A stretch of DNA of 64,000 nt from Planctomycetota bacterium (GTDB taxonomy: Bacteria; Planctomycetota; PLA2; JAEUHO01), in NCBI GenBank assembly GCA_965223505.1, contig CBDCWP010000005.1, positions 1-64,000 of the forward strand, read 5' to 3'. The notes beneath the pieces are model-generated. The model worked only from the letters and a program-made list of their open reading frames with translations, ran no database searches and was not told the origin of the DNA. A program made the position numbers and the translations under genes. Numbering within the stretch: the first letter of the stretch is position 1; every line of letters starts with the position of its first letter. Below, in pieces: positions 51 through 44,394 of the stretch.

Positions 51-77
51 CGGGCGGGGCCCTCGCCCCGCCCCTAC
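51..77 (-). repeat. GTAG-type REP-like palindrome
   Basis: Reverse complement is GTAGGGGCGGGGCGAGGGCCCCGCCCG; overlaps the RHS stop codon; similar copies at 15630 and 28864. Confidence 0.65.
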
Positions 78-3000
78 TCCTCCTCTTGGATGATGATGCG
101 CGGCGTCACCATCAACGTCAGCGACTGCGTTCCGCGACCGATCCCGACGTTCTTGAACAACCGGCTGATGTACGGAATCCGGCTCAACATCGGCACGCCG
201 CGCTCGTTCGCCGGCTTCTTCGTCGTCTTGATTCCACCCAGCAGAATCGTACCCGTCTGGGGGAGCGTGACCTGCGTGCGCACGCGCTGAAGCCGCAGCT
301 CCGGAAGCTGGATGACGATCGGCGCGCTGTCGTCCACGAACGCCGTCGAGAAGGTCTGGATCGGCCGCACCAGCTCCGCGACGGTGGGCTGCAGCGTCAA
401 CCGCACGTAGCGGCGATCGCTGCTGACCGTCGGCCGCACGTCGAGCGTGATGCCGTCCTGAATGATGCCCACGATCGGATCGGCAACGAACGACGTCTGC
501 GCGATCTCGACGTCGAAGTCCCGGATGTACGACGTCTGGTTGATCGCGCCGACGTTCGCGCGCTGGGTGTTGAAGACGGTGATCCGAGGTGCTTGCACCA
601 TCGAGAGACGTTCGCTCCTTTGGACGGCTCGCAGGATGACCTCGAGCTCCGTGTCGTCGAGGAACGTCGGTTGGAACGCCAGTCCGTCACGCGTCGTCTG
701 CGAACCGCCGATCGCCGCGTCGCCAAGCCCCTCGGCGCGGGTCTTGAGCCCGTCGTCGCTTCCGTCGTCGACGCCGCTCCCGAACGTGTCCGAGGGCTGG
801 TTGACCGGCGGACACTCCGCGACCGCGCCGGCGAGCCCCCGAAAATCGACGCCGATGTCGCGCAAGAAGTTGTCCGATACGGTCACGAAGCGCGTCTCGA
901 CGGTCACCTGGAGATCCAGCACCCGACGCAGGTCTTCGAGCAAGTCGGCGATCTTGTCCTGGACCTGCGGCGTGGTCGCTGCCGCGACGGCGTTGGCGTC
1001 GAACCCGCTTCCGGCGCCGCCGGACAGTCGGCCCTGCCGGTCGCCGGTACGGGGGCTCACGGAACCGCTCGCCGAGCGGTAGTGCTGCGTCCCCGCGTCG
1101 TAGAAGGCCCCCTTCTTGAGGAGCGGGTTCCCGCGCGCGCTGAACGCCGCGTCGAGCATGGTCATCGCATCGCGAATCGTCGGAACGCTGAACCCGTCGT
1201 AGTCGTACCACTCGACGGGAATCCCGTTGTCGTCGACGAGCGCGCTCGGTCCGTTCTGGTAGTCGGACGTATAGAAGAAGCTCTGGTCCGGGTCCCCGTC
1301 GGCGTTGGTGTCGCGGTCCATCGCGAAGACGTCGCCGATGCCGCCGAAGAGGAATTGCGCCAGCGTGCGCGTGCTGCCGCCGGGACGAATCTCGATCACC
1401 CGCTCCCCTTGGTAGATGAACACGAGGTCGGTATTGAAGGCCGGAACGTTGGTGACGACCTTGCGAGTGCGCCGGTCGCGCGCGTCGTAGGTGTTTTTCT
1501 CGAAGATGAAGTCCGGCGCGCTCACGAAGCGCGCCACGGCGATCCGCCCCAGGAAGTCGCACTGATATACGAAGAAGTCGTCCTCGGACTCGGTGCCGAT
1601 GCCGGCCGTGCCGCCGTCGTACTCCTTCGAGGTGTCGCCCTGCACGCTGTTGCGCGTGATGTTGGTCGTTTGATTGATCACGCCGTCCGTCTTGAAGATC
1701 CGCGTGACGGCGCCGGTCCCCGTCAATCGCGCGTCGGTCTGCAGGATGCCGAGCCCGAGGATCGTCGCGGTCTCGTCGCGGGTGATGGTGAACGGCCGGC
1801 CGCGTGAGTCGTACGTCGTGCTCGTCGCTCGGGTCACGTTGTTCCCGCCCGGCACGGTGCGCGACGTCGTCAGCTGCGAGAGCAGGTTCGTACGCGTGCG
1901 CCCCACGCCGGTGATCTGCGAGATGACCGCGGCCGCGCCGTTCTGCACGGTCTGCGCGAACGGCAGTCCGAGCTCGTCCGTCGTCGTGCTGGTCTCCAGG
2001 ACCGTGCTTCCGCTCGCCGCCGTCGTCTCCATGAAGGGGAAGCTGTTGCGCCCCTGGTAGTAGCGATCGTTGCGGATCGTCGTGGGGTTCGACACCACGG
2101 TGGGCTGGTTGATCGGGTCGTACTCGTACGACACCACGCGGCTCGCGCCGGGGTAGCGCAGCTCGACCGGATCGTCGGCATCGTAGGACACGCCGACGGC
2201 CAGGCCGTCCTGCACCTCTTCGACCTTGCGGCCGCAGGAGTCCCACTTGAAGACCAGCACCGAGTCGTCCGCCGCGGTGCCGGGTTCGTTGTTGTCCGTC
2301 GCCCGCGTGACGCGCGAGAGCCCGTCGTACTGCCACGTCAGCTCCGTCGAACCCACGTACAGCGGGTGCGCGCCGCCGGCGACCGTGAGCAACGGATCGG
2401 TCACGCCGGTCAGCCGCGTGAGCCGGTCGAGCGCGTCGTACTGGCCGGTCATGACCGTGCCGTTCTCGTCGGTGCGCTGGACCATGTTGTCGTTGAAGTC
2501 GTAGGCGTAGGTCTGTTGGCTCCCGTCGGGATTGAGCATGACCGTGCGCCGGTCGAGCGCGTCGTACTCGTACGTCGTCTGGTTCCCGACGTCGTCGAGC
2601 AGGCTGACCAGCCGGCCGTTGGCGTCGAGCTGCCGAACGATCCGAATCAGCCCGTCCGCGTTGTCGGGGTTGGTCATGTCGAGCGGTTGATCGCCCTGGC
2701 CGTTGACGCGCAGCTCGTGCGTTCGGAGCCACAGCCGGCCCGCCCCGTCGTAGGCGTAATGGTTGCCGTTCCCGCGATCGTTGATGTTGCCCGCCGTGAA
2801 GAGGCCGAGGGGATCCGCGATCGACGCACCGCGCGCGTCCCATCGCGAGACGACGCGGTTCGCGCTGTCGAAGTCGAAATACGTGGTCTGCCCCTTGGCG
2901 TCCGTCACGCGTGTCAGCCGGTGAAGGGCGTCGAACACGACGTGGGACGTCTGGGTCGCGGGGGCGACCAACGAGTCGGGGCTCACGTGGGTCTCTTCGA

Positions 3001-5941
3001 CGCGGATGAGGTCGACGGCGTCGTAGAAGTAGTCGGTCGCCTGCGGCGTCGGACCGGCGGGATCGACGAGCGGGCGGATCTGCCGGACGAGGCGGTCCAG
3101 ACCGTCGTACACGAAGCAGTCCTGCGCCAGATCGTCGGTCGTGATGACGGTCTGCCGGCTGAGCGCGTCGTATTCGTAGCGGGTGCTCTTCTTGCTGTCG
3201 CCCGGCGTGAGCGCGCCGTCCTGCACGGTCGCGCCGGATGTGAGGATGATGCCGGCCGGAACGAACAGGTCGCGATCCACCCCGATCAGCCGTCCGAGCT
3301 CGTCGTACGAGAGATCCGCGCCCGAAAGCGCGACGTTGCCGCCGCCCGAGCCGTCGGCCGGCCCCGTGCAGTCGTATCGAATCAGCCGATCGACAGCGTC
3401 GTACGCGTACGTGCACACGTTCCCGCCGCGGTCGTTTTCCTGGATCATGCGATCGAAACCGTCGTACGCGTAGAAGTGCGTGTTGCCGGCGTTCTGCGTC
3501 CGAATGCCGGTGAGGTTGTCGTTGGCGTCGTAGAAGTAGTTGATGGCCGACGAATCGGCGCCCAAGCCACCGCGCTGACGAATGAACACACGGTCGTGCG
3601 CGTCGTAGGCTTGCAGGACGCGGGCTTCCGGCTGTGCGCCGGTCGTCGACATGGGACTGCGCACGTCGACGATGTTCTCGTTGGCGTCGTAGTGGTAATC
3701 GGTCATCAGCCGCTGTGCTTGCGCGGACGCCGGAATCGCGGCGTCGCGCGTCGCGTCGATGTCGACGCGAATGACCCGGTCGAGGATGTCGAACGTCATG
3801 AGGTGTTGGTAGACGGACGGACTTCCGGGAACGACCTGATGGGTCGACGGGTCCGTCGTCCAGTGTTCGGCGTCCGTGCGAACGACGTTTCCGTTGGCGT
3901 CGTACGTGTAGTGCGTGAGGAAGCCTCGCGCCTGGCCCGGATCGACCTTCGGAGCCTCGCGCTCGACCAGCTCGCCCAGCTCGTTGTGGAGGTAGAGGTA
4001 CTCGTTTCCGTTCGGGTCGGTCAAGGCGACCAGGTTGCCGAGATCGTCGTATCGATAGGACGTCTGGGCGTCGACGGGTGTGGCCGCGTCCTGACGCCCC
4101 GGACCGGCTACGTCCACGCGCATGCTGCTGCGATAGCCGCCCGCCGCGGGGTCGTTGCCGGCGATGAGGTTCGCGCCGTCGCCGTCGGGATCGTTCTCGG
4201 GAAAGTACGCATAGACGTCGCGGTTGCCGCGCGCGTCGATCAGCTCGACGATGCGGCTGAAGTCGTCGTACGCATAACGGGTGACGTGCTCCTGTTGCGT
4301 GTCCCCCTCGTTCACGGCTTGCTTCGAGCCGGCTGCGAGCGCGACCGTGGGGTCCTCGCGCCGAACGAGATTGCCGGCGCGCTGGTCCGTGCGGCCGTCG
4401 CCGTTGAGATCCCCGAGGTTCAGCTCGGAGGGCGGGATCACGAGACCGAATTCGGGCACGCAGGCCGGCGGCGTGTTGCCTTCCTGGTAGTCGTAGAAGT
4501 AATGCGTCGTATATCGCGCGGCCGACTGGGCGCCGCCGTTCTGCGGCACGTACGCGGGGTCGTTGCCCCGCGGATCCGTGATCGTGCGCACCATGTTGTA
4601 GACCGGGTCGTACGTGTAGGTGGTCATCAGCTGCGGATGCGCGCTGGGACGAACGCCGTCCGGTGTCAGCGTGATGCTCAGCACGTTGCGTTGCGCCGAG
4701 CGGTCGGGGTTGACCGTGTCGTAGACGAAGTCGACACGGTTGCCGAGCGGCAACGTCCTGCGCGTCACGAGGCCGTCGGGGTTCACCATGAAGTCCGTGA
4801 CACCGGGTGTGCCGCCGGGGTCGGACACGTACCGCAGGCAGTGGCCCACCGCGTCATGGAAGTACTGCGCGACGTTGTTGCGGCGGTCGCGCACGGTGGT
4901 GAGCGACGCCGTGCCGACCGGCCCGCCGACCGGGGCGAAGTCGTAGGTGAAGCTGAACATCCCTCCCGCGGGGCGTCCCGACGCGTTGGCGCCGCCGCGG
5001 ACCTGCGTCACCACGCGATCGAAGGCGACGCCGGGCCCGCCGTAGGTGTTGACGACGGACGGCGTGTTGGAGGCGTCCGCGACCTCGTTCGGCCGAACGA
5101 TCGTCAGCAGATTGTGATTGAGCTCGGGCGACGCCGATCCACTGACGTAGGTGTACCGCTCCGTGCGGCCCGCGGGGAAGTCGTTGCCGTTCGGCGTGCC
5201 GTTCACGGTCGGTGAGCGTACGGCGACGAGGTTGTCGGCGGCATCGTACGTGTACATCACCTGGTTTCCGGTGAAGTCGGTGATCGTCTCGACGAGGTTG
5301 CCCGTGTACGTGAGCACGACCTCCCGGTTGTACTCGTCGAAGATCGATGTCAGCCGAATGCCCGTGTACTGGTACCGCACCTGGTTGCCGGCGGGGTCCG
5401 TCGTGTTCTGGAGCACGCCGTTCAGGTCGAAGCGGCACTTGAGGCCCTGCGGATAGCGCAGCGTGAAACCCGTCGCGTCCTTGATCAGGCGCGCGAAGAC
5501 GCCGGGTGGCGAGTCGTACGTCCCGCCTCCGGTGTCGGCGAACTCGCGCGCGGTGCCGTTGCCCGGATGCCAGATCACGTCTCCGCCCGACTGCTCGTCG
5601 AGGCGCATGAAGATGTTGGAGTCCCAGCCGAACCCGAACGGTCCCGCTTCGTGAACGAGACTGCCGTAGAACCGCTTCACGACGATCCCGAGGCGCCGAG
5701 CGCGAATCGCCATGTCGACACGCGAGAGACGGAACTCACCGCTGTGAAGCCAGACGCCTGCCGCGCTGTCCTGCGGTGAGAGCCCGGCGCTCGCGTTGGT
5801 CGCCGGCGGCTGCAGGTGCGGTCCGAGCACGACGATGATGCCGCCACCTCCGCCACCACCGCAGCCGGTGCAAAGCAGCACCGCCAACATCCAGAAGAAC
5901 CAACGGACGCGATGCTTCGATCCAAACCCCGTCATCATCAT
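74..5941 (-). CDS. RHS/YD-repeat lipoprotein with C-terminal secretin (GspD/PilQ-like) domain
   Basis: GAGGAG RBS before ATG at 5941; lipobox-like LLCTGC; RHS N-terminal motif (GPFGFGWDS); many YxYD repeats; C-terminal ~300 aa with secretin motifs QVTVETRFVTV, APRITVFNTQRA, GITLDVRPTVS, GVPMLSRIPYISRLF, LMVTPRII. Confidence 0.85.
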   Translation of the reverse strand: MMMTGFGSKHRVRWFFWMLAVLLCTGCGGGGGGGIIVVLGPHLQPPATNASAGLSPQDSAAGVWLHSGEFRLSRVDMAIRARRLGIVVKRFYGSLVHEAGPFGFGWDSNIFMRLDEQSGGDVIWHPGNGTAREFADTGGGTYDSPPGVFARLIKDATGFTLRYPQGLKCRFDLNGVLQNTTDPAGNQVRYQYTGIRLTSIFDEYNREVVLTYTGNLVETITDFTGNQVMYTYDAADNLVAVRSPTVNGTPNGNDFPAGRTERYTYVSGSASPELNHNLLTIVRPNEVADASNTPSVVNTYGGPGVAFDRVVTQVRGGANASGRPAGGMFSFTYDFAPVGGPVGTASLTTVRDRRNNVAQYFHDAVGHCLRYVSDPGGTPGVTDFMVNPDGLVTRRTLPLGNRVDFVYDTVNPDRSAQRNVLSITLTPDGVRPSAHPQLMTTYTYDPVYNMVRTITDPRGNDPAYVPQNGGAQSAARYTTHYFYDYQEGNTPPACVPEFGLVIPPSELNLGDLNGDGRTDQRAGNLVRREDPTVALAAGSKQAVNEGDTQQEHVTRYAYDDFSRIVELIDARGNRDVYAYFPENDPDGDGANLIAGNDPAAGGYRSSMRVDVAGPGRQDAATPVDAQTSYRYDDLGNLVALTDPNGNEYLYLHNELGELVEREAPKVDPGQARGFLTHYTYDANGNVVRTDAEHWTTDPSTHQVVPGSPSVYQHLMTFDILDRVIRVDIDATRDAAIPASAQAQRLMTDYHYDANENIVDVRSPMSTTGAQPEARVLQAYDAHDRVFIRQRGGLGADSSAINYFYDANDNLTGIRTQNAGNTHFYAYDGFDRMIQENDRGGNVCTYAYDAVDRLIRYDCTGPADGSGGGNVALSGADLSYDELGRLIGVDRDLFVPAGIILTSGATVQDGALTPGDSKKSTRYEYDALSRQTVITTDDLAQDCFVYDGLDRLVRQIRPLVDPAGPTPQATDYFYDAVDLIRVEETHVSPDSLVAPATQTSHVVFDALHRLTRVTDAKGQTTYFDFDSANRVVSRWDARGASIADPLGLFTAGNINDRGNGNHYAYDGAGRLWLRTHELRVNGQGDQPLDMTNPDNADGLIRIVRQLDANGRLVSLLDDVGNQTTYEYDALDRRTVMLNPDGSQQTYAYDFNDNMVQRTDENGTVMTGQYDALDRLTRLTGVTDPLLTVAGGAHPLYVGSTELTWQYDGLSRVTRATDNNEPGTAADDSVLVFKWDSCGRKVEEVQDGLAVGVSYDADDPVELRYPGASRVVSYEYDPINQPTVVSNPTTIRNDRYYQGRNSFPFMETTAASGSTVLETSTTTDELGLPFAQTVQNGAAAVISQITGVGRTRTNLLSQLTTSRTVPGGNNVTRATSTTYDSRGRPFTITRDETATILGLGILQTDARLTGTGAVTRIFKTDGVINQTTNITRNSVQGDTSKEYDGGTAGIGTESEDDFFVYQCDFLGRIAVARFVSAPDFIFEKNTYDARDRRTRKVVTNVPAFNTDLVFIYQGERVIEIRPGGSTRTLAQFLFGGIGDVFAMDRDTNADGDPDQSFFYTSDYQNGPSALVDDNGIPVEWYDYDGFSVPTIRDAMTMLDAAFSARGNPLLKKGAFYDAGTQHYRSASGSVSPRTGDRQGRLSGGAGSGFDANAVAAATTPQVQDKIADLLEDLRRVLDLQVTVETRFVTVSDNFLRDIGVDFRGLAGAVAECPPVNQPSDTFGSGVDDGSDDGLKTRAEGLGDAAIGGSQTTRDGLAFQPTFLDDTELEVILRAVQRSERLSMVQAPRITVFNTQRANVGAINQTSYIRDFDVEIAQTSFVADPIVGIIQDGITLDVRPTVSSDRRYVRLTLQPTVAELVRPIQTFSTAFVDDSAPIVIQLPELRLQRVRTQVTLPQTGTILLGGIKTTKKPANERGVPMLSRIPYISRLFKNVGIGRGTQSLTLMVTPRIIIQEEE

Positions 5942-6087
5942 CAACTCCTCACTCCCACGCCCGCGAAGCCCGCTTCCAGGGGCTGGTTCAGCGTAGTCCG
6001 GGCGTGCTTTCCTTCGCAACGCCCCAGTGCGAACCGTCGGATCGTTCGGACGGTTCGGTGTCCCCCGAACGGCGCTACGCTTGGGGT

Positions 6088-23710: not shown

Positions 23711-25054
23711 ATGCGCAACTGGGTTTGGCTCGCGGTCTGTTGTTCGATGATCGGCTCGGCGGAGGCGGAGGAACCCGTTGCCGGGAAACCGGTGCCGGAG
23801 CTGCGGCTGCCGACGATCGATCGCGACAAGACCATCGGCCTGCACGGGCTGCGCGGCAAGAAGGTGTTGCTGATCGAGTTCGCGTCGTGGTGAGCGGGCT
23901 GCCGCAAGCACGTGCCGGTCTGGCACAAAGCGACCAAGAAGTGGCGCGACAGCGGCGCGCTCGCGCTCGTCGGCATTACGCAGGAGCAGCATCCCGACCG
24001 CTGCCGCCTGTTCGCGCAGTGGCACGGCATCGACTGGCCGATCCTGTGGGACCCGTTCAACATGACGGGCTCGAAGGTCGTTCCGCGTTTCTTCCTGATC
24101 GACGAGCACGGGATCGTGCGCTCGAAGCGCGCGAACCCGGAGTCGATCGAGGAGATGTTCCTCTCGAAGGCCTTCCCGAAGCCCGCGTCGTTCCCGCAGC
24201 ACCCGAAGGGGACCGGCAGGGAGCTGATCGAGTGCCTCACGACGCCGAAGGACGACCCAGAACACGCGATCTACCGCGCGCTCTCGGATCTGTTGTGGCC
24301 GCCGAAGCCGGGTGATTGGTCGGCGATCGACGTGCTGAGCAACGCGGCGGCGGACACGGAGAGCGCCTTTGGGCGGGCCACGATCTTCAGACTGGGTGCG
24401 GCGCACTGCCTGCGGCGCGACTCGCCGCAGCGCGCAGCCGGCGACTTCGAGCTCGCGCTGCGAAGCTGGGGGCTGGCGCTGAAGGCGGACCCGCAGCAGT
24501 ACATCTGGCGCCGGCGCATCCAGCAGTACGGGCCGCGCATGGACAAGCCGTATCCCTTCTATGACTGGGTTTCGAAGGCGCAGGCCGACATCCGCGCGCG
24601 CGGCGAGACGCCGATCGAGCTGCCGGTCGCCTTGACGGCGGCGGAGCTGGCCAAGCGCAGCGGCGATCCGGAGCCGGGCGTCGGAGACGAGGAACCGGAC
24701 CCGAAACGCCAAATCGAGAGCATGGACGGCGTGGTTCGCATGGAGAGCGCGGTGGCGTTCGACACGAGCCGGCGCAAGGCGAGCGCGGCGCGGGTCCATC
24801 TGACGCTGTGGCCGGGAAAGCAAACGGTGAAGTGGGATCCGGCGGCCGGCGTGCCCCGGGTATGGCTCGCGGGCAAGCTGGTGAAGCCCCGGTTCGCGGT
24901 GCGGCCGGGCGCCGGCATCGCGTTCGAGCTGGACGCGACGTTCGAGGCGGGCGTGCCGCTGCGGGGGTACGTGCTGTACTACGCGTGTCTGGACGACACG
25001 GGGCAGTGCCGGTACCTGCGGCACGATTTCGAAGTGAAGGTGGAACGGCCGTAG
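23711..25054 (+). CDS. Secreted TlpA/peroxiredoxin-like selenoprotein (UxxC; Sec at TGA 23891-23893)
   Basis: ORFs 23711-23893 and 23912-25054 are in one frame; readthrough gives KKVLLIEFASW-U-AGC-RKHVP at the WCxxC site; downstream hairpin. Confidence 0.85.
23912..23926 (+). promoter_or_regulatory. Putative bacterial SECIS hairpin
   Basis: GTGCC-GGTCT-GGCAC; loop starts 24 nt after the UGA. Confidence 0.7.
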
Positions 25055-28400: not shown

Positions 28401-28835
28401 ATGCGCATTCTGGGTTTCTTCGCCACATGTCTGTGCCTCGCCGCCTGTGCCGAGGAGGAACCGGTCTTCCTGCCCGGCTTGGCCTTCGTCGACGCGTACG
28501 AAACCGCGTACGAAGCCAATGACGCGCAAGCGTTCTTCAAGCTCCACACCAAGGCTTCGCAGCGCCACCTCGTCACGCACGGCATGCCGGAGAACCGCGA
28601 GCGCACCCCCGAGGGTTGGTTCATGGAGTTCCGGCGACAGATCGACCCCAAGGCGCCGTCGCCGCTCGGCGGGCCCTACGCGCGCGAGCGCCGCGAAGGC
28701 GGCAAGGTCATCTGCGTCATCCGCCAGGCCGGCGGCACGAAGGAGCGCGAGCTGACACTCGTCGAAGAGGACGGCGCCTGGAAGCTCGACCTGCTCGACA
28801 CGTACATGCCGTTCGTCGAACCGGATCGTCACTAG
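28401..28835 (+). CDS. Hypothetical lipoprotein (NTF2-like)
   Basis: Lipobox LAAC; ends with LVEEDGAWKL. Confidence 0.65.
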   Translation: MRILGFFATCLCLAACAEEEPVFLPGLAFVDAYETAYEANDAQAFFKLHTKASQRHLVTHGMPENRERTPEGWFMEFRRQIDPKAPSPLGGPYARERREGGKVICVIRQAGGTKERELTLVEEDGAWKLDLLDTYMPFVEPDRH

Positions 28836-28863
28836 GAACCGCTGCTCGCGGGCCCACGTTGCT

Positions 28864-28889
28864 GTCGGGGCGGGGCTTGACCTCGCCCG
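28864..28889 (+). repeat. REP-like palindrome (degenerate)
   Basis: GTCGGGGCGGGGCTTGACCTCGCCCG between convergent genes. Confidence 0.6.
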
Positions 28890-28916
28890 CGAACGACAGC
28901 GCGCACACGCATGTAC

Positions 28917-29882
28917 CTAGTCCGCGACCCCGCCGCGCTCCTTCAGCTTCTTGATGCGGTCCGGCTCGTTCTCGACCAGCCAGGTGTCTTTCGACAGCTT
29001 CTCGTACGCCGTCTTGTAGTGCGGCGCGGCCTCGTCCTTGCGATCGAGCGCCCACAGGCACTCGGCGATCTCCTCCGACGCGTATCCCGCCTCCGGCTCG
29101 CCGGCCGCTTCGTACTCCGCGAGCAGGGCGAGCTGCGACTTCAGCGCCTCTTCCGTCTTCCCGCTCTTGCGTAGCGTCTGTCCGATGAACCACTTCGCGA
29201 CGCGTGCGCGCTGGACGTTCTCCTGCGCCTCGCAGAACGCGCGCATGTTCTCGAACAGCCCCATCGCGAGGTCGTACTCGCCCCGCTGCAGACGCGTGTA
29301 GCCCTGATTCTGGTACATCGTCGCCAGCCACGCGCGCGCGCGCTCCTGCTTGGACGCCTGTGCGATGTGGATCGCGAGGTCGTTCCACGCGATCGCCTCT
29401 TCCTTCTCCGCGTCCGTCTCGAGCTTCAGGATGTACGCCAACATGTGCACGGCATCGACGGCGTAGAGGTCGGCGCCCGCCTTCAGGGCCCCCGTGTACG
29501 CGCGGATGAAGTGCGGGCGCGACGCGTCGGGCTTGCCGGACGAGTTCAGTGTCCGACCGCGCTCGAGCGCCGAGCGAACGCGGCCGACCTCGCAGCCGTC
29601 GGCCTTCAAGATGTCGTCGGCTTCGTCGAGCAGCGCGTGCGCGCCTTCGTAGTCCTTCTGCAGCCCGCGTGCGCGCGCGATCTGCGTGAGCAGCTCACCG
29701 AGGTAGTTCGGGTCGTTCGCCTCGCGCGCCCGCGGCAGGATGTCGCGCAGCACCTTCTCCGTGTCCGCCGGCTTGCGCCACTTCAGCAGCGGATACAGAT
29801 CCGGCAGCTTCTCCTCCTCCGCCATGCCCCATCCTCCCGCGCAGACCACGGCCGTCATCGTCAGTCCGGCAACGAATCGCAT
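28917..29882 (-). CDS. TPR-like helical repeat protein
   Basis: ELLTQIARARGLQ, LERGRTLNSSG, AVDAVHMLA; TAATG coupling to the M18 gene. Confidence 0.75.
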   Translation of the reverse strand: MRFVAGLTMTAVVCAGGWGMAEEEKLPDLYPLLKWRKPADTEKVLRDILPRAREANDPNYLGELLTQIARARGLQKDYEGAHALLDEADDILKADGCEVGRVRSALERGRTLNSSGKPDASRPHFIRAYTGALKAGADLYAVDAVHMLAYILKLETDAEKEEAIAWNDLAIHIAQASKQERARAWLATMYQNQGYTRLQRGEYDLAMGLFENMRAFCEAQENVQRARVAKWFIGQTLRKSGKTEEALKSQLALLAEYEAAGEPEAGYASEEIAECLWALDRKDEAAPHYKTAYEKLSKDTWLVENEPDRIKKLKERGGVAD

Positions 29883-31165
29883 TACAAGACCTCGTAGAAC
29901 GCCTTCATCACGTCGATCATCATCGGCACGTCGGCCGCGCCGGCCATCTCGCGCGCCGAGTGCATCGAGAGCATCGGATTGCCGACGTCCACCGTGCGCA
30001 CGCCCAACGCCGCGGCGGTCGCCGGGCCAATCGTCGATCCGCACGCGAGATCGGCGCGGTTTGCGAACTGCTGCGGGGTCACGCCGGCGCGTTCGCAGCA
30101 GTTCATGAAACGCGCGATCGACTCCGCCTCGCTGGCGTAGCGCTGATTGATGTTCGACTTGATCACCGGACCGCGCCCGAGCACCGGACGATGCGCCGGC
30201 TCGTGCCGGTCCGGGTAGTTCGGGTGCACGGCGTGTGCCATGTCCGCCGAGATGAGCAGACTCTTCGCGAGCGCGCGCCGCAGCTCGTTTTCGCCGTCCG
30301 TCAGTCGCGCGAGCACGTCGCGCAAGAGGGGCCCGTCCGCGCCGTGGGCGGTGCGACTGCCGATCTCCTCGTGATCCCACAGCGCCAGCACGCGCGTGAA
30401 CGAGGCCGGCGCGTCGGCGCCGGCCAGCAACGCGGACAGCCCCGCGTGACACGAGCCCTGGTTGTCCAGCCGCGGCGCGTGGATGAAGTCGCCGCCGGCG
30501 CCCGAGACGATGGACGGCTGCAGGTCGTACACCATCAGGTCGTAGGACAGCACGTCGCCCGGCGCGACGTCGCCGATCGCTTCCGCGAGTAGCGTCGCGA
30601 GCGACGGCGCGTCGTCCATGCCGAGCAGGCCGTGCACGTGCTGCTGGTGATTCGGCTTGAACCCGTCGGTCATCAGCTCGCGCTGGAGGTGAATCGCGAG
30701 GTTGGCTACGCGCAGCAGCGCGCGCTCGAGGTCCACCAGCACCATGCGCGTGCCGCCCTGCGGCGTGCGCACACCGACGCGCCCCGCGAGCGAGAGATCG
30801 CGGTCGAACCAGGTGTGGGTCAGGACGCCGCCGTAAGGCTCGAGCGCGATGCGTCGATAGCCCTCACCGGCAAGATCGGCGTTCGGTTTCACCCGCAGAT
30901 TCGGCGAGTCCGTGTGCGCGCCCACGACCTGGAAGCCCTCGTCGGCCGGATCGCCCGAACCGCGCTGGAAGGCGACGATGCTTCCGCCGCCGCGGATCAC
31001 GTAGTGCTTGTCGCCGGGCGCCGCTTTCCACGTCTGGTCCTCGTCGAGCCGGCTGTAGCCCGCGGCGTCGAGGCGGCGGGCCGTCTCCGCGACGCAGTGG
31101 TACGGCGTCGGCGACGCATCGATGTAGGCGAGCAGGTCCTGAACCGCGTTCGGGGCGTTCGACAT
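29882..31165 (-). CDS. M18-family aspartyl aminopeptidase
   Basis: SPTPYH, GAHTDSP, RLDN, DHEEIGS, SADMAHAVHPNY, CGSTIGP, SMHSARE. Confidence 0.93.
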   Translation of the reverse strand: MSNAPNAVQDLLAYIDASPTPYHCVAETARRLDAAGYSRLDEDQTWKAAPGDKHYVIRGGGSIVAFQRGSGDPADEGFQVVGAHTDSPNLRVKPNADLAGEGYRRIALEPYGGVLTHTWFDRDLSLAGRVGVRTPQGGTRMVLVDLERALLRVANLAIHLQRELMTDGFKPNHQQHVHGLLGMDDAPSLATLLAEAIGDVAPGDVLSYDLMVYDLQPSIVSGAGGDFIHAPRLDNQGSCHAGLSALLAGADAPASFTRVLALWDHEEIGSRTAHGADGPLLRDVLARLTDGENELRRALAKSLLISADMAHAVHPNYPDRHEPAHRPVLGRGPVIKSNINQRYASEAESIARFMNCCERAGVTPQQFANRADLACGSTIGPATAAALGVRTVDVGNPMLSMHSAREMAGAADVPMMIDVMKAFYEVL

Positions 31166-31174
31166 GCGCGCAGT

Positions 31175-31231
31175 GTAGGGGCAGCCCTGGTGGCTGCCCA
31201 CGAGTCGCCCCATTGCACCGCCCGCCCCTAC
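31175..31231. repeat. REP doublet (one arm degenerate)
   Basis: GTAGGGGCAGCCCTGGTGGCTGCCC ... CGCCCGCCCCTAC. Confidence 0.65.
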
Positions 31232-34486: not shown

Positions 34487-35719
34487 TCAATGCGCAGGTG
34501 CGTCACTGACCCGGCCGAGCAACACGTGTCCGATCACGTAGAAGGCGATCACGGACAGCAGCGCGGTGCGTTGGTCGCCGCCGAGCGTCGAGGTGATCGT
34601 GATGAAGACGAGCGGTCCGATGATGGCGCCCGACTTGCCGCAGAGGGCGTAGAAGCCGAACATCTCCGCCTCGCGTCCGTCCGGAATGAGCCGCGAGACG
34701 AAGGCGCGCGACGCCGATTGGATGCTGCCGAGCCCCAGCCCCGCCAGCGCGCCGACGATCGTGAAGCCGATCTTGGACGGGGCGAAGTACGCGGCGACGA
34801 CCACCCCCACCCACCAGACGAGGAGCACGCGCACCGTCCAGCGCGGTCCCTTCACGTCCGCGGGCTTCGCCATGATGAGCGCACCGAGCAGCGCGGTCAC
34901 CTGCACGACCGCTACGAGCCCCAGGAGCTGCGGTCGCGTGAACCCGAGCTCCTTGCTCGCGTAGAGCGACGCGAACACGATCACCGTGTGCACGCCGTCC
35001 ATGTAGAAGAAGTACGAGACGAGGAACCGGCGCAGGTTGCGCATCGCCCACACGTCGGAGAGCGTCTTGCGCGTCTGCCGCACCCCCTCGATGCCCGCCG
35101 CCACCAGGCCGAGCTGCGTCGGCCGGTCCGGCGGCAGGCGGCGGAATGCCGGGATCGAGGCCAGACCCCACTGGAGCGCGAGCGCGACCCAGACCCACGC
35201 CAGCCAGCCTTCCTGCAGCAACAGCGCCGCGACGCCCAACGCGAGCAACGATCCCGCGTAGCCGACGGCGAACCCGAGGGCGGAGAGCCGCCCCTGCTCG
35301 TCGGTCGGCGCGAGATCCGGCAGATACGCGTTGTAGAAGACGTTGCTCGCTTCGAAGCACACGCTCGCCAGCACGCCGACGACGAACCCGCCCCACACCA
35401 TGCCGGGCGCCAGTCCGGCGAAGCCGAGCACGCTCGCGATCCCGCCCAAGGTGAACACCAGGAGCATGCGCTTGCGCCGGTTGGTGTGGTCGGCGATGCC
35501 GCCGAGGAACGGCGCCGACAGCGCGGCGGTGAACATCGCCGTCGACAGCACCATGCCCCACCACCAGGAGCCCTCTCCGTCTTCGTTGCCCACGACGGTC
35601 TCGGCGTAGAAGACGGCGAAGACCACGGGATAGAGGACGGCGAAGGCCGAATTGCCGAGGTCGTAGAGGCACCACGCGCGGACGTTAGGGTTAGAGAAGA
35701 GTCGTTTCGCCGCGGACAC
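34487..35719 (-). CDS. MFS transporter (UMF1/ATG22-like)
   Basis: WCLYDLGNSAF, VFYNAYLP, FFYMDG, EMFGFY. Confidence 0.88.
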   Translation of the reverse strand: MSAAKRLFSNPNVRAWCLYDLGNSAFAVLYPVVFAVFYAETVVGNEDGEGSWWWGMVLSTAMFTAALSAPFLGGIADHTNRRKRMLLVFTLGGIASVLGFAGLAPGMVWGGFVVGVLASVCFEASNVFYNAYLPDLAPTDEQGRLSALGFAVGYAGSLLALGVAALLLQEGWLAWVWVALALQWGLASIPAFRRLPPDRPTQLGLVAAGIEGVRQTRKTLSDVWAMRNLRRFLVSYFFYMDGVHTVIVFASLYASKELGFTRPQLLGLVAVVQVTALLGALIMAKPADVKGPRWTVRVLLVWWVGVVVAAYFAPSKIGFTIVGALAGLGLGSIQSASRAFVSRLIPDGREAEMFGFYALCGKSGAIIGPLVFITITSTLGGDQRTALLSVIAFYVIGHVLLGRVSDAPAH

Positions 35720-38517: not shown

Positions 38518-41500
38518 CTACTTGGCGGTCACGTCGATGACGGTCTCGCCGGTTCCGTCGAGCTCGACCTCTTCGTCGTAGATCGGCTCCTGGTTGTTCA
38601 CGAACCCTTGCCCGAACACGCGCACCGTCACCTTGAACCGGCCGGCGCCGAGGCCCTTGACGACGAGGTCCTTGCCGTCCGCCATCTGGAGCCACATCGA
38701 TCGCTGGTACTTGGGCTCACCCTGGTGATGCACCTGCACCCACGTCTGCGGCTTGGTGTCGCTCTGCGTTGCGACACGCACGCGGATCGTCGCGCCCACG
38801 GGCTGCTGCAGCATGCCGAGGTCGGTGACGCCTTCGCCGACGGTGACGTTCTTCTTGATGATCGGCGCCTTCTGATACGCCTCGATCCACAGCGTGTACT
38901 TGCCCGGCGGGAGCCCGCCGAGCCGCCACGTCGTCCCCTTGAGCGTCGGATTGATGCTCTTGACGGTCTTCTCGAGCGTCCCGCCCTCGAAGACGACGAC
39001 GCGCACTTGCCCGCCGCCCCCCGGCATCGGCATCGAGGGCACCGGGATCGCGCCCGACGTGCTGCTCGGATCCTTCGGCTCCGGCGTGTCGGGGTGTTTG
39101 AAGTGGATCTCGCTGCCCGCGACCATCGTGATGGTGATCGGACCGCCGCCGGCGACGACCGCGATGTTCGTGTTGCCGCCGGCGACGCCGAGCACCGGAT
39201 GGCGAACCATCAACATCACCTCTTGGCCGGCGACGCCGCGGATCTTGAAGTTGCCCTTCTGATCCGGACGGCGTCCCGCCCACTGATTCGCCGGATCGTC
39301 CTGGCCTTGCACCAGGATGCGCGTCTGCTGCGCCGACTCGCCCTCGGGCACCTCCACCTTGCCCTCGATCCAAACGGAGGTCGTCAGATCGAGCATGATC
39401 TCCGACGGCGGGCCCCCGAGCGTCACCTCGACGGAGTTGCTCTCGATGCGCGACGTGGCGTCGCGAGCGCGGTACGTCCCCGCCTTCAGGCCTTCGAACT
39501 TCTGTGAGCCGTCGTCGGCTCGCCCGCCCGCCCGATTGCCGCTCATCGGGTTGAACCCGCTGTTCCCCCCTGAGTGGTCCCACTTCTGGGTCTCGTCGTT
39601 CCACTTCTGCAGCTGCAGGTTGTACGAGCCGTCGGAAGGCTTCTCGACGTACACGATGACCGTGCCTGCTGCGGGCATCTCGACCTTGACGGTCTGCTCG
39701 GCCTGGCCCTTGCCGGGCACGATCTCGGCTTTGCCCTGCAGATAGCCCTGCGCGTTCACGATGACCGGGACCGGCTTCTCGGACTCGATCTGCTGCTCGC
39801 TCCAGCGATGTGCCACGCGCAGCTCGCCGGCGTCGGGGTCCTCGGTGATCTCGTTGACGTTCTTCCACGCGCCGCCGATGGTCACGTTGAACTGGGGCGG
39901 AAGACGGTCTTCGCCGTCGATGTTGATGCGGATGACGATCGGCGCCTCCGGCTCCATGTCGATCTCGTAGAGGTCCTTGCCCTCTTCGATCTTGAAGTTG
40001 CCGATCATGGCGCCGCCCCACGCCTGGTGCGGCGGCAGCATGTAGACCTGAACCTGGATCCCGTCCTGGACATCGACCTCGACCTTGCCTTCCGGGTCGG
40101 TGGTCATCGGCTCCATCGTTTGCATCGCCATCGAACCCTGAAGGCGAATGCGCGCGTCGGCGACCGGCCCGGCGCCCTTCTCCTTGATGGCGATCGTGAC
40201 CTTGCGACTGGCGGCGAACGAGACCGGGTTGCCCTTCTCGGCGCCCGCCTGACACCAGAAGGCCGCCTCGGCGTTCTCGGCGACGACGCGCCCGTTCATC
40301 CAGCTGTCCGGCAGCCCCTCGATGACGAGCTCCCCGTCCTTCATGTACGCCTTCATCTCCTTGCTGGCGAAGTTACGCATCCAGAACTGGAGCTCCACGC
40401 GCAGCTCGGTTCCGTCCGGCGGCGGATCGACCTTGGCGTTGTCGGCGATCGGGAACGTGACGGTGCGGAACTTACCGAGCTTGATCGTCCCCTCCGTGTC
40501 GTCGGCCTTGACGGAGTTGGACGGGGTTCCGCCCCATGGGTTCGGCTTGGGATAGCCCTGAGCCTCCGCAACGAACCGGTAGGTCTTCTTGGGCGTCAGG
40601 CCGGTGACGCGGGTCTTGCCTTCCTCGTTCGTGGGTTCGACCTCGAGCGGCGGCAGCATGCCGGACGCGTTGATGTTTCCGAAGTTGCCCTGCACGGAGA
40701 CCTTGGCGCCGGGAATGGGCTCCTCGGTCTCCTTGTCGACGACCGTGAGCTCGATGATGCGCTCCTCCGGCAGCTCGACCTTGAATACGTCTTTGGACGT
40801 GCGCGGGAGCGTCACCATCTTCTGACCGCGGCCGTAGCCTTTCGCCGCGCACAGGGCCGTCACGTTGCCCTCGGGAAGCAACGACGCTTCGAACACGCCG
40901 GCTTCGTTGGTCTTGCCTTCGGCGACGGGCGTCATCTGTCCCCAGACCGTCGACGTCACGACGACGTCCGCGTTCGGAACAGGCGCCTCCTGATGCACGA
41001 CGTGAACCGCGAGCTTGTGCGCGGTCCCCAGGATGATCGGGTTGACGACGACGACCTCCCCCGATTGCTGGGAAAGCCACATGCCGCTCACGCCGGTCAG
41101 CGGACCGGGTGCGTTGGCGCGCACGAGCCCCATCGCCCAGCCCGTCTCGGGCGCGTCACCCGCGTAGAACTGGTACTCACCGTTCGCGTCCGTCTTCGTC
41201 GCGATCTTGTCGCGATCCTTGAAGCGCGCCACCACCTCGGCATCCGCGACGGGTCTGCGGCGGTCGTCGAGGACGCGCCCCTTGACGAGAATCCCGCCCA
41301 GCTCGTCGGGTCCGACGAGCCCCTCGGGGAGCTCGGCGGCCTTCGCGGCGGCGGCTTCTTCGGCGGCGCGGCGGCGGGCGGCTTCCTCGTCGCCCTTGAG
41401 CAGCGCGCGCGACGCCTCGTCGTCGTAGTCGTCTTCGTAGCCGGCGCCGTCGTACCCGTCGTCGGTTCCTGTGAGCATCTCGCCGAAGAGCAGCCACATC

Positions 41501-41547
41501 AGCCCCAGCACTACGACGGCAACCGCGCCGACTACCAGTACGCGCAT
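38518..41547 (-). CDS. Large membrane-anchored carboxypeptidase-regulatory-like repeat protein
   Basis: N-terminal TM; repeated GRVLD..PVADAEV and TDANGEY; GLPPGKY. Confidence 0.75.
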   Translation of the reverse strand: MRVLVVGAVAVVVLGLMWLLFGEMLTGTDDGYDGAGYEDDYDDEASRALLKGDEEAARRRAAEEAAAAKAAELPEGLVGPDELGGILVKGRVLDDRRRPVADAEVVARFKDRDKIATKTDANGEYQFYAGDAPETGWAMGLVRANAPGPLTGVSGMWLSQQSGEVVVVNPIILGTAHKLAVHVVHQEAPVPNADVVVTSTVWGQMTPVAEGKTNEAGVFEASLLPEGNVTALCAAKGYGRGQKMVTLPRTSKDVFKVELPEERIIELTVVDKETEEPIPGAKVSVQGNFGNINASGMLPPLEVEPTNEEGKTRVTGLTPKKTYRFVAEAQGYPKPNPWGGTPSNSVKADDTEGTIKLGKFRTVTFPIADNAKVDPPPDGTELRVELQFWMRNFASKEMKAYMKDGELVIEGLPDSWMNGRVVAENAEAAFWCQAGAEKGNPVSFAASRKVTIAIKEKGAGPVADARIRLQGSMAMQTMEPMTTDPEGKVEVDVQDGIQVQVYMLPPHQAWGGAMIGNFKIEEGKDLYEIDMEPEAPIVIRINIDGEDRLPPQFNVTIGGAWKNVNEITEDPDAGELRVAHRWSEQQIESEKPVPVIVNAQGYLQGKAEIVPGKGQAEQTVKVEMPAAGTVIVYVEKPSDGSYNLQLQKWNDETQKWDHSGGNSGFNPMSGNRAGGRADDGSQKFEGLKAGTYRARDATSRIESNSVEVTLGGPPSEIMLDLTTSVWIEGKVEVPEGESAQQTRILVQGQDDPANQWAGRRPDQKGNFKIRGVAGQEVMLMVRHPVLGVAGGNTNIAVVAGGGPITITMVAGSEIHFKHPDTPEPKDPSSTSGAIPVPSMPMPGGGGQVRVVVFEGGTLEKTVKSINPTLKGTTWRLGGLPPGKYTLWIEAYQKAPIIKKNVTVGEGVTDLGMLQQPVGATIRVRVATQSDTKPQTWVQVHHQGEPKYQRSMWLQMADGKDLVVKGLGAGRFKVTVRVFGQGFVNNQEPIYDEEVELDGTGETVIDVTAK

Positions 41548-41731
41548 CTCGTGGCCCTCCCAAGCACACCGGACATCCGCGCGCCCATCGTAGGCCGAAC
41601 CGCGGGGCTGTGGTCACGCCCCGGGGTGTTGTTTGGACGCCTCGCAGGTGCGGCTCCAGGCTCAATTTGGTACCACCTGGGATCGAGGCCGCGCGTTCCG
41701 GATCGAGCGGCAAACACGACGGAGGTGCCCG

Positions 41732-43051
41732 ATGGCGTTCAAGCTTCGCTTCACATGGCTCGTGTTGCTGGCGGCACTTTGGATGGCGGCGCCGAGCCTC
41801 GCCGAGGAGGAGGGGACCGAGCCCGTTGCGGCCGATCCGAAGGCCGCGCCGGAGGCGGAGTCGAAGGAGCAGATCGAGGCCCGGTCCGCCTTCACCTGGC
41901 TCAAGGCCGCGGAAGAGTTCCGAACGAAGATCGCGCAGAGCGGCCGCGTCCTGATGGAGGCCGCGCGCGAAGGCAAGGGCTTCGACCCGCAGAAGCGTCA
42001 GGACTGGATCGACGCTTCGAGCAAGCTGCGTCAGGTCACCGGGCCGGTCGTGAAGAAGGCGCAGGAGGCATTCCGGGCCGCGTTCGCGAAGACCGCCTGG
42101 GACGCCTGGGACGCGGAGAAGGACGCCGAGATCCTGGAGCGCGGGCTGGACGCCACCGCGCGCCACGAGCTGGAGCACGACCCGGCCAAGGCGGTCGCGG
42201 CTTTGGAGCACTTGCTCGAGCACTGCCCTGACGCGCGCGCGGCGTCCTACGCCAAGTCGACCTGGCTGCCGATCGCGCTCTCTTCGACCGGCGACTTCGA
42301 GCACGCCCGCAAGCGGATGCAGGAGCTGCACGACGAGGCGGACGAGAAGGACCAGCCGGGCATGCTGATGAACATCGGCGACGCGTACGCGATGGAGGGC
42401 AAGTACCAGGAAGCGCTCGACACGTACGCGAAGGCGAAGGCGGCCATTCCCGCGGAGATCACGGACCGCCGCGACCCGCGGGGACGCGTGGCGCGCTACC
42501 TCGACCTACGCACCGGTCTGCTGGGCAAGCCGGCGCCGGCGCTGGGCGACGGCACGTGGCTGGGCGCGGAGCGGAAGACGTTGGCTTCGCTGAAGGGTCA
42601 GGTCGTCCTGCTCGACTTCTGGGCGACGTGGTGCGGGCCGTGCCTGCGCGGCATGCCCGGGCTGCAGAAGATGCACGAGCACCTGGGCGCTACGGGCCTG
42701 AACGTGATCGGTGTGACACGCGAGTACAAGAAGCGCGGCGTGCTGCCGGAGGTCGAAGCGAAGGACGGCAAGCCGGCCTTGCCGCGCGAGCTCTACAAGG
42801 GCGAGACGATGGAGGCGTACATCGAACACCTGAGCGCGTTCCGCACGCGCCAGGAGATCACGTATCCGTTCGCCGTGGTCGCGGGCGACGTGATCAGCAA
42901 GCAGTACCTCGTGACGGGCATTCCCACGATGGTCGTGATCGACCCGGACGGGACGGTCGGGTTCATCGCGGTCGGCGGCGCGCGCGAGAAGATGTTGGAG
43001 GTCGCCATCGCGCGGCGGCTGAACACCCTGAAGAGCGCCGGCTCGGACTAG
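41732..43051 (+). CDS. Secreted TPR + TlpA thiol-disulfide oxidoreductase
   Basis: GGAGG RBS; signal peptide; GQVVLLDFWATWCGPC; GIPTMVVID. Confidence 0.9.
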   Translation: MAFKLRFTWLVLLAALWMAAPSLAEEEGTEPVAADPKAAPEAESKEQIEARSAFTWLKAAEEFRTKIAQSGRVLMEAAREGKGFDPQKRQDWIDASSKLRQVTGPVVKKAQEAFRAAFAKTAWDAWDAEKDAEILERGLDATARHELEHDPAKAVAALEHLLEHCPDARAASYAKSTWLPIALSSTGDFEHARKRMQELHDEADEKDQPGMLMNIGDAYAMEGKYQEALDTYAKAKAAIPAEITDRRDPRGRVARYLDLRTGLLGKPAPALGDGTWLGAERKTLASLKGQVVLLDFWATWCGPCLRGMPGLQKMHEHLGATGLNVIGVTREYKKRGVLPEVEAKDGKPALPRELYKGETMEAYIEHLSAFRTRQEITYPFAVVAGDVISKQYLVTGIPTMVVIDPDGTVGFIAVGGAREKMLEVAIARRLNTLKSAGSD

Positions 43052-43229: not shown

Positions 43230-43314
43230 GCTCGAAGTCCCGGTTCCGGCCGGCGCGGCCGTGATCCGCCAACAACTCGGCGCCCGGCTGCGTCTGGATG
43301 GTGGAGGTCCCGAA

Positions 43315-44394
43315 ATGCGCACTGTCGTCATGTTGTTCGCCGCGTCGTTGCTGGCGCCCACCGTCGCGCTCGCCGAGGAGAGCTGCCTCTCCAAGGACAA
43401 GACCGGGATGGCCTGGGTGCACCCTTTCACGTCCGCGCTGGAGAAGGCCAAGAACGACAATCGCATCCTCCTCATCAAGCCGGTCGCCTTCGGCACCAGC
43501 CAAGACGGCGGGTGGTGACCCGCCGCCGAAGTCCTGAGAGCGGGTCCGTTCTCCGACGAGCGCATCATCCGGCTGGCCAACCGGCGCTTCGTGCCCTTCT
43601 TCTTCGATCTCTCCAACCGCGGCGCCGCCGGTGACCCGCAAGCGCGCGCGTTCCTCGTCAAGGCCAAGCCCCAGTTCGGCAAGGGCATGGTGCCGACGCC
43701 GCCCGTCTTCTTCATGAACGCGCAAGGCAAAGTGCTGGGCGAGATCAGCAACTACGCCAAGCCGGACGACGTGCTGAAGACGATGCTCCACGTCCTCGCG
43801 ATCAACCCGGCGTACGCGAAGCCGAGCGACGCCGAGAAGGCGATCAAGGATCCGATCGAGCTCGCCAACCTGCGCATCGATCTCCAGGACTACGCCGGTG
43901 CCCAGAGCGCCATCGCACACGAGAAGTCCGAAGACGCGGCGTACCTGCGGGGCCGCATCGCGCGCTTCCAGAAGGACTGGAAGACGATGGAGACCAACCT
44001 CGCCCCGCTGAAGAAGAGCGAGAAGTACGGCGCCGACGTGCGCATGGAAACGGCGTACAAGCTCTGGTTCGCGTCCGACTTCGAGGGCCTGCGCAAGCAC
44101 CTCGAAGGGTTCCCCGAGGACAGCAACCGCTACACGGAGGCGCGCTACTACGAAGGCCTCGCCGCCTTCCACCTGAAGGACAAGGAAGCGGCGATGAAGA
44201 TCTGGTCCTCGACGATCAGGGCGTGCGCGCAGGACCCGTGGATCTACCGCGCGGACTGGGCGTACACCCAGTCCAAGAAGGGCGGAAGCGGCCGCGGCGG
44301 TTTCTCGAGCGCCGGCCCGCGCGACTCGTTGCTCAACCGCATCGGCTACATGGGCAACCCGAACCCGGATCTGAAGGGCCCGAGCTCGTCCTAG
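43315..44394 (+). CDS. Secreted thioredoxin-fold + TPR selenoprotein (Sec at TGA 43516-43518)
   Basis: GGAGG RBS, signal peptide; readthrough gives ALEKAKNDNRILLIK...GGW-U-PAAEVLRAGPFSDERIIRLANRRFVPFFFD, in frame with ORF 43591-44394. Confidence 0.8.
43531..43557 (+). promoter_or_regulatory. Putative bacterial SECIS hairpin
   Basis: GAGAGCG-GGTC-CGTTCTC (43536-43553), extended by GTC/GAC; loop starts 25 nt after the UGA. Confidence 0.7.

Follow-up and report, generated by a model that had tools for sequence, protein, structure and literature searches.

The subject of this report is a gene on the plus strand of a 64,000-nucleotide stretch of planctomycete DNA (Planctomycetota bacterium, GenBank assembly GCA_965223505.1, contig CBDCWP010000005.1, positions 1 to 64,000), which is called the window here. 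The gene occupies positions 43315-44394 as a single frame of 359 codons, from an ATG at 43315 to a TAG stop at 44392-44394, and its sole internal in-frame stop is a TGA at codon 68 (43516-43518); there is no frameshift. The ATG is preceded, at a distance of 7 nt, by a ribosome-binding site, GGAGG (43303-43307). The sequence around the UGA reads GGW-U-PAAEVLRAGPFSDERIIRLANRRFVP, where U denotes the predicted selenocysteine (Sec) and the onward residues are PAAEVLRAGPF. Translation with table 11 reports the 3′ portion alone, as a protein of 267 amino acids (aa) encoded at 43591-44394. A first-pass annotation of the window had noted the ribosome-binding site, a signal peptide, the TGA at codon 68 and a total length of 359 aa, and all of these are present. 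On the strength of 13 orthologous full-length loci and an AlphaFold model of the whole chain, we consider 43315-44394 to be very probably a genuine selenoprotein gene, complete with its 359 codons and TAG and with one UGA read through.

Residues 1-20 (43315-43374), MRTVVMLFAASLLAPTVALA, were judged by eye from the sequence to resemble a signal peptide, with a predicted boundary between VALA and EES, a predicted local distance difference test (pLDDT) score of 58-59 and a mature protein of ~339 residues. A hydrophobic N-terminus is present in all 14 orthologous sequences, which here and below are the window plus the 13 loci that cover the TGA. A thioredoxin-fold domain at approximately residues 33-165 (43411-43809), recognized from the AlphaFold model, profile matches in the PDB and Foldseek, is broken by the UGA. 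Within it lie UGA codon 68 itself, a hairpin resembling a bacterial selenocysteine insertion sequence (bSECIS) at 43536-43553, and T128-P129-P130 (43696-43704), a candidate cis-proline loop in front of strand 131-134; all 14 sequences retain P129, which, in the model, may correspond to the cis-proline of thioredoxin. Helical repeats resembling tetratricopeptide repeats (TPR) extend over approximately residues 172-322 (43828-44280), as indicated by the model helices and by matches to TPR families, in Foldseek and in the PDB profile search. The chain ends in a conserved, mostly nonhelical C-terminal tail (residues 323-359; 44281-44391) with the pattern F..AG.R.SLLNRIGYMG..NPDL.GP, in which F330, L340, R342, Y345 and P351-D352-L353 are invariant (alignment A1); the model gives this tail a pLDDT of 74-92 and little secondary structure.

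A word-indexed search of protein databases returned 144 relatives, and among the 120 listed none covers >82% of the query, most being 260-300 aa long. When 13 relatives were aligned, 9 were found to begin at (M/V)LRAGP or MRAGP, right after the TGA, and P0065 was full length. An exhaustive phmmer search gave 213 relatives at E ≤ 0.001, and breakpoints were tallied over the best 150 of them: 47 begin at query residues 73-78, 24 are short proteins that have their own C-terminus exactly at residue 67, 15 cross the site, and the other 64 are fragments beginning further downstream.

A genome scan found 14 loci, all in metagenome-assembled genomes of Planctomycetota (Gemmatales, Mariniblastus, Brocadiia, Phycisphaerales and Planctomycetia). 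One of them, L012, ends before the site and was left out of the TGA count. Each of the 13 loci that cover the site, like the window, has an in-frame TGA in the context G[G/C]W-TGA-PA[A/G]E[V/I][L/F]RAGP, and in every one an ATG and a hydrophobic N-terminus lie 62-90 codons upstream. Pairs of sequences are on average 58% identical over the 43 residues that precede U and 55% identical over the 102 that follow it, and the nucleotide identity upstream of the TGA is 0.66, 0.75 and 0.46 at the three codon positions. Since identity is similar on both sides and the codon-position pattern is that of coding DNA, the flanks are under coding constraint. These data bear on the idea that the locus is a pseudogene or an assembly error, produced by a nonsense mutation in a thioredoxin-TPR gene of the Cys type. 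The single internal stop and the lack of annotation at that point of the window would fit such an origin, but the recurrence of the identical TGA in all 13 independent assemblies, which come from different orders, effectively refutes it, and the flanks show a coding pattern with no frameshifts or further stops; the chance that remains for it is practically nil.

The way in which gene callers split the locus, which is the same everywhere, would also be expected if the UGA were a true stop, separating an exported peptide of 67 residues from a TPR protein that starts at an internal GTG, CTG or TTG. There is an in-frame GTG at 43591 in the window, and TGA is the ordinary stop of 11 of the 26 Pfam-supported window genes, from which it follows that the genetic code is standard and not reassigned. 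Nonetheless, there is no conserved ATG or ribosome-binding site after the TGA, gene callers having chosen V73, L74 or later codons as starts, and the signal peptide is found on the first piece only. Moreover, the TGA falls exactly at the position of the CxxC nucleophile in all 14 sequences, and 17 TGA-free relatives are continuous across the site. Together with the fold of the chain, these observations make termination at codon 68 highly improbable.

The fold was modeled with AlphaFold2 on a 44-sequence family alignment, and the whole chain was predicted as one unit with a mean pLDDT of 93.5 and a predicted template modeling score of 0.89. In the thioredoxin part, helices are predicted at residues 38-48, 69-76, 82-91, 108-122 and 150-163, and the strands of the sheet are contributed by residues 51-57, before the TGA, and by residues 92-98, 131-134 and 140-144, after it. 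Because the sheet draws strands from either side of the TGA, the two “genes” of the databases cannot fold alone. The first-pass annotation had named separately encoded halves as the result that would speak against a selenoprotein; what we find is a sheet that spans the TGA and a signal peptide confined to the first piece. U68 is placed directly before helix 69-76 and after strand 51-57, i.e., at the nucleophile position at the N-terminus of helix α-1, and helices fill the region from residue 172 to 322. The proposal of a thioredoxin head and a TPR tail is borne out by AlphaFold, Foldseek and the PDB profile search alike. In the last of these, the family profile matched 2kuc, a putative disulfide isomerase (E = 3.9e-5), and the thioredoxin 2lst (E = 4.8e-4), as well as TPR proteins. 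The best Foldseek matches were YbbN/CnoX (3qou and 3qdn), 7tkv (a Thioredox_DsbH protein), AGR2, 2lst and 3f9u, with domain-level TMt values of 0.60-0.73 to thioredoxin-fold chains, including 2lst, 3f9u and AGR2. On the window protein, TPR_16 was matched below the Pfam threshold; across the 44 family members, Thioredox_DsbH was touched by 9 (best E = 3.5e-4) and a single TPR family by up to 21.

The hairpin downstream of the UGA has seven of seven pairs between arms at 43536-43542 and 43547-43553, with the loop GGUC at 43543-43546. The first-pass annotation had placed a 7-bp hairpin with a GGTC loop at +25; the hairpin is there as described, and the position was approximate: counted from the U of the UGA, the stem begins at 20 nt and the loop at 27 nt. 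Aligned without gaps over 60 nt counted from the TGA, the 14 sequences all share GCG-GGT-CC, down to the wobble bases, and every sequence forms a hairpin of 7-8 bp in one of two registers. In register A (the window, L001, L002, L005, L006 and L008), there are seven of seven pairs, the loop is GGUC, Pro is encoded by CCG and Ser by UCN, except that L002 has Cys UGC in place of Ser UCN. In register B (the other eight sequences), there are 7-8 of eight pairs, the loop is CGGGUC, and the codons are CCC for Pro and AGC for Ser. The apical loop of the Escherichia coli fdhF SECIS is GGUC.

The stability of the hairpin was compared with that of 1000 synonymous recodings per gene, drawn from the codon usage of the gene itself, over a 27-nt segment. 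The native hairpin was more stable in 14 of 14 cases, the fraction of recodings that fold equally well being 0-0.039, and the minimum free energy (MFE) ranged from -9.1 to -13.0 kcal/mol across the set; for the window, the MFE is -10.6 kcal/mol and 1.7% of recodings fold equally well. In all 14 sequences, the hairpin uses AGA or AGG for Arg and GGT for Gly, codons that are rare in the window genes (1.0%, 3.3% and 8.9% of their codon families). The bSECIS model calls for an apical loop of 3-9 nt with G at loop position 1 or 2, a stem of 4-16 bp, a spacing of 16-37 nt and an MFE of ≤-7.5 kcal/mol (PMC13188914), and the 14 hairpins all lie within these bounds, with loops of 4 or 6 nt, stems of 7-8 bp, spacings of 22-24 nt and G at position 1 or 2. 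Conservation of the TGA and the hairpin, which the first-pass annotation had suggested as a check, is accordingly seen in 13 of 13 loci for the former and in 14 of 14 sequences for the latter.

A scan of codon usage on both strands of the 64 kb, for TGA codons with 40 coding-like open codons on the 5′ side and 60 on the 3′ side, returned three sites. Two of them, 43516 and 23891, are W-TGA at the active site of a thioredoxin fold; the third, at 34489 on the minus strand, was rejected as the ordinary stop of an MFS gene that is followed in frame by a LemA gene. The site at 23891-23893 belongs to a second likely selenoprotein gene at 23711-25054 (plus strand), which would encode an exported ResA/TlpA-like protein with a long C-terminal extension. 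Its UGA has the context VLLIEFASW-U-AGC, and when it is read through, AhpC-TSA and Redoxin exceed the Pfam cutoffs and the ResA-like WAxxUGC model is weakly matched. Its hairpin (23912-23926) is GUGCC-GGUCU-GGCAC, with the loop beginning 26 nt after U, compared to 27 nt in the gene at 43315-44394. Of 1968 relatives, the best 120 all cover 81-86% of the query, which fits proteins that may have been annotated from a start just after the TGA. The two W-UGA proteins of the window are not detectably related (best BLASTP E = 0.6), and the occurrence of a second such gene with a similar hairpin would provide indirect support for Sec decoding in this organism.

The residue that occupies the Sec column was inspected in the 17 TGA-free relatives that are continuous across the site. 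It is Cys in four (P0154, P0179, P0264 and P0257), Gly in three (P0065, P0132 and P0168), Asp in two (P0123 and P0219), Ser in two (P0145 and P0149) and Tyr in one (P0186), and in five (P0129, P0137, P0236, P0269 and P0273) there is a two-residue gap. A search for Cys homologues had been proposed at the outset, and P0154, P0179 and P0264 are such proteins; P0257 is a generic tandem DsbD-gamma-like protein in which the first Cys of WCxxC aligns with U68. Instead of a dithiol CxxC, the window protein has U-P-A-A, and all 14 sequences conform to U-P-A-[A/G]; because Ala71 occupies position +3 from U68 there is no resolving Cys of the CxxC type, just as the first-pass annotation had stated. Candidate partner Cys residues occur in three places relative to U: 8 of 14 sequences have one 42-44 residues N-terminal to it, 3 of 14 (L005, L006 and L008) have one at -2 (C-W-U), and 4 of 14 (the window and L001-L003) have one at +234 to +236; every one of the 14 has at least one, those of the window being C24 and C304.

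Taken as a whole, we regard it as likely that 43315-44394 encodes an exported thioredoxin-TPR protein with a lone Sec, in which UGA68 is decoded as Sec and which functions as a one-selenol oxidoreductase. This reading is based on how the gene is built, on the conserved UGA and hairpin, and on the fold, from which we infer Sec insertion, export, redox chemistry and the role of the TPR part. In the mechanism that we envisage, the hairpin 20-38 nt downstream of the UGA would present GGU in its apical loop and recruit SelB. Sec68 would then occupy the position of the nucleophilic first Cys at the N-terminus of helix α-1, facing the conserved Thr-Pro loop, with the second Cys replaced by Ala, and the protein would act in the periplasm. 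The Sec68 selenolate would attack a client disulfide, sulfenic acid or oxidant, giving a selenenylsulfide or selenenic acid intermediate, which may be resolved by a thiol from elsewhere, such as that of the TlpA-like reductase encoded just upstream, or by a distant Cys in the same chain, while the TPR domain and the tail might select the client or partner. A suitable gene lies directly upstream, at 41633-43051 on the plus strand: it encodes a TlpA-like AhpC-TSA/Redoxin protein of the Cys type, with WATWCGPC and a long helical N-terminal part. One of the other loci, L005, also has an AhpC-TSA/Redoxin gene directly upstream (L005:3169-5772, plus strand), and the other 12 do not.

Several results weigh against this reading, beginning with the decoding machinery. 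No selA, selB or selD was found among the 38 scanned open reading frames (ORFs) of the 64-kb window, which has no tRNA gene of any kind and hence no tRNA-Sec, and a tRNA scan of the 14 loci found no tRNA-Sec there either. In favor of decoding, complete Sec machinery has been reported in several Planctomycetes (PMC4807772), and Table S9 of that paper lists one “hypothetical” planctomycete candidate. For the hairpin, covariation is not significant, with 326 of 500 shuffles scoring as high for register A and 57 of 500 for register B, and the alignment contains one double compensatory change only. The switch between registers takes just 1-2 events on the tree and for this reason was not counted as independent covariation. 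The fold of a single 81-nt sequence gives a z-score of -0.10 relative to dinucleotide shuffles (-0.52 for the second gene, 23711-25054), although such single-sequence scores are uninformative in DNA of 68% GC. Hairpins with a GGTC loop are not enriched, with 36 in the window compared to a mean of 33.6 in shuffles, and this motif by itself is not diagnostic; those with a TGA 22-31 nt upstream number 9, with a shuffle mean of 3.06 and a maximum of 10. Rfam returned nothing above noise for the hairpin (E above 2). One further arrangement of this kind is present at 41283-41320 on the plus strand, where a TGA is followed at an equal 26-nt offset by an 8-bp hairpin with a GGTC loop, antisense to the gene at 38518-41547; because there is no open frame on both sides of it, it is probably a chance occurrence.

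The thioredoxin-type match of the window protein in Pfam is below threshold (Thioredox_DsbH, 16.6 bits compared to a cutoff of 27, E = 0.0079), no family member exceeds the curated cutoff of a thioredoxin-type Pfam or NCBIfam model, and Foldseek gave no match in the PDB at E ≤ 0.001. The gene neighborhood, as examined by tblastn of flanking ORFs, Pfam and all-against-all BLASTP, is not conserved, and the TlpA-like partner proposed above adjoins the gene in the window and L005 only.

The absence of sel genes from the window would also be compatible with a reading in which the UGA is read through without Sec, by a near-cognate tRNA (for Trp, Cys, Arg or Gly) or through another kind of recoding, with the hairpin as a generic stimulator, and the Gly at this column in P0065, P0132 and P0168 can be cited in its favor. 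However, the loop content and spacing of the hairpin match the model of a SelB-type bSECIS, and both recur at the second W-UGA thioredoxin-like gene. In addition, this is where thioredoxin-fold selenoproteins classically carry Sec or Cys (PMC13188914), and Cys homologues exist. We therefore hold read-through by an amino acid other than Sec to be improbable, and Sec remains the preferred assignment for codon 68.

The residues at the Sec column bear on the function. Of the relatives that span the site, 13 of 17 are without Cys there, so Sec/Cys pairs are a minority, and a maximum-likelihood tree pairs P0065, which has Gly, with L002 as its sister (support 96/93), and P0123, which has Asp, with L013+L014 (support 95/96). 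Forms with Gly and Asp are nested beside forms with Sec, and the reactive residue is therefore dispensable in some lineages; by this comparison of sequences, Sec has been swapped for residues other than Cys more than once inside the Sec-bearing group. The nested forms weaken the case for a strictly catalytic, indispensable role of Sec68.

They favor an alternative in which the protein is a real selenoprotein but mainly a periplasmic holdase or adaptor like CnoX, the Sec serving only to tether clients transiently, to sense oxidants, or to bind metal or selenium. CnoX is described as a thioredoxin-plus-TPR holdase induced by HOCl (PMC10998233, PMC8129009), and the top Foldseek match is indeed YbbN/CnoX (3qou, E = 4.4e-3, followed by 3qdn, E = 5.3e-3), with the same domain order of a thioredoxin fold and then TPR. 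The thioredoxin motif is incomplete in both, that of E. coli YbbN being SQHC (PMC10998233). Relatives in which the Sec column holds Gly, Asp, Ser or a gap persist, a few of them beside Sec forms, and the strongest conservation is in the TPR end and the tail. Against this, the costly Sec is retained in all 14 orthologues, and the geometry of the active site is kept (W-U-P, the helix N-terminus and the conserved T-P loop). There is no sequence match to YbbN/CnoX in Pfam, NCBIfam or the PDB profile search, and the superposition of whole chains is poor, with template modeling (TM) scores of 0.21-0.27 for the YbbN/CnoX entries (0.23-0.27 for 3qou) and a root mean square deviation of 22 Å. Furthermore, CnoX is cytoplasmic and without Sec, whereas the window protein has a predicted signal peptide, a predicted Sec in place of the first Cys of CxxC and an additional conserved tail. 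We view a holdase or adaptor as a tentative alternative that is somewhat doubtful, and the one-selenol oxidoreductase as the reading to be preferred. In a bolder proposal, which we think unlikely, the protein may be a selenium-based periplasmic “chaperedoxin,” the first of its kind, whose lone selenol would trap oxidized or unfolded envelope proteins as selenenylsulfide adducts and pass them to a TlpA-type reductase; its thioredoxin-like part might then be remotely related, as a bacterial counterpart, to the redox domain of SELENON.

In sequence, there is a likeness to the exported DsbD-gamma/Thioredoxin_7/Thioredox_DsbH (DUF255) type, for which there are weak but consistent matches. The DsbH model NF043050 matches L006, the window family also matches PDB entries 2kuc, 2lst, 3ira, 3f9u and 7tkv of this type, and the two share a W-[C/U] nucleophile followed by a segment of the type ...F.D..V..L.N..FV...D. 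The window protein differs in having an 8-residue insertion before W-U, U-P-A-A instead of CxxC, and a fusion of the domain to TPR and the tail, and all of the scores are under the curated cutoffs. AGR2, of the monothiol protein disulfide isomerase (PDI) family, likewise has a thioredoxin fold with one reactive residue, and Foldseek gives TMt values of 0.60-0.62 to 9i3u and 9i3f. AGR2-type PDI proteins have a CxxS motif and belong to the secretory pathway. AGR2 is eukaryotic, however, with Cys rather than Sec and no TPR, and its identity to the window protein in the Foldseek alignment is 21%.

SELENON resembles the window protein in being a selenoprotein whose thioredoxin-like region faces a noncytosolic compartment, but it has an SCUG motif, in which Cys adjoins Sec, an EF-hand and a transmembrane anchor (PMC12839072). 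The window protein, in contrast, has GGW-U-PAA, with Trp before U (G-C-W-U in 3 of 14 orthologues), with no EF-hand in the Pfam scan and no hit to a membrane anchor. The likeness of a U-x5-LR...L.N..F pattern to eukaryotic SELENON, raised in the first-pass annotation, finds no support in these comparisons. A profile search with the thioredoxin domain for longer, fused or SELENON-named relatives returned this family alone, and no PDB entry named SELENON was among the Foldseek or PDB profile matches.

The catalogued thioredoxin-like selenoproteins also have Sec at the active site of a thioredoxin fold, an in-gene SECIS after the UGA, and Cys homologues (PMC13188914). A review of 2026 catalogues 119 prokaryotic selenoprotein families or subfamilies in its Table 1 (PMC13188914), among them thioredoxin (UxxC), thiol:disulfide interchange protein (UxxC), Trx7/PDZ (NF041199, CxxU), TsoY (UxxV) and VPGUxxT. 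That table has no TPR or DUF255 entry and, in the parts examined, no UxxA motif, and “Planctomycet,” TPR and DUF255 are absent from the text of the review. TPR and Planctomycet are likewise absent from the main text of the papers on BSepDB (PMC13326102) and deep-Sep (PMC12013277), as distinct from their supplements, so that Planctomycetota go unmentioned in all three. In NCBIfam release 20 (June 2026), the window protein touched just the TsoB DsbD-like C-terminus model (16 bits compared to 805, E = 0.002), and 10 orthologues gave no match to the NCBIfam selenoprotein models. Neither the window protein, in which the CxxU motif of Trx7/PDZ does not occur, nor the 10 orthologues matched NF041199. 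Three relatives, P0091, P0131 and P0135, touch that model at positions 190-273, which is the PDZ part only; these have a PDZ domain added C-terminal to the conserved tail. A search of full-text literature on selenoproteins in combination with Planctomycetota, tetratricopeptide or SECIS found no description of such a family.

As far as these sources go, 43315-44394 is the first described member of a Planctomycetota-wide family of lone-Sec thioredoxin-TPR proteins, and the suggestion in the first-pass annotation that the family may be uncatalogued holds in that no NCBIfam selenoprotein model and no entry of the review's Table 1 corresponds to it. It is a new family inside a well-known kind, the thioredoxin-fold selenoproteins with an intragenic SECIS. 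If the reading is true, the prokaryotic selenoproteome gains one more family, and hundreds of public entries named “TPR repeat protein” or “hypothetical protein” are a systematic annotation error, each being the 3′ four-fifths of a selenoprotein gene; the second W-UGA family would carry the same defect in about two thousand entries. A single-Sec thioredoxin fold without a resolving Cys would also be a natural test case for one-selenol chemistry; Cys, Gly or Asp takes the place of Sec in close relatives, and the domain is coupled to a TPR module for protein binding.

Two other features of the window can be mentioned. A stretch of ~2.5 kb at 28651-31228 is without an ORF that passes the GC3 filter. 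On the minus strand, an unusual ORF of 1981 codons at 74-6019 joins DUF6531 and RHS repeats to a C-terminal secretin domain, as identified by Pfam, and it may represent two genes merged in the ORF call.

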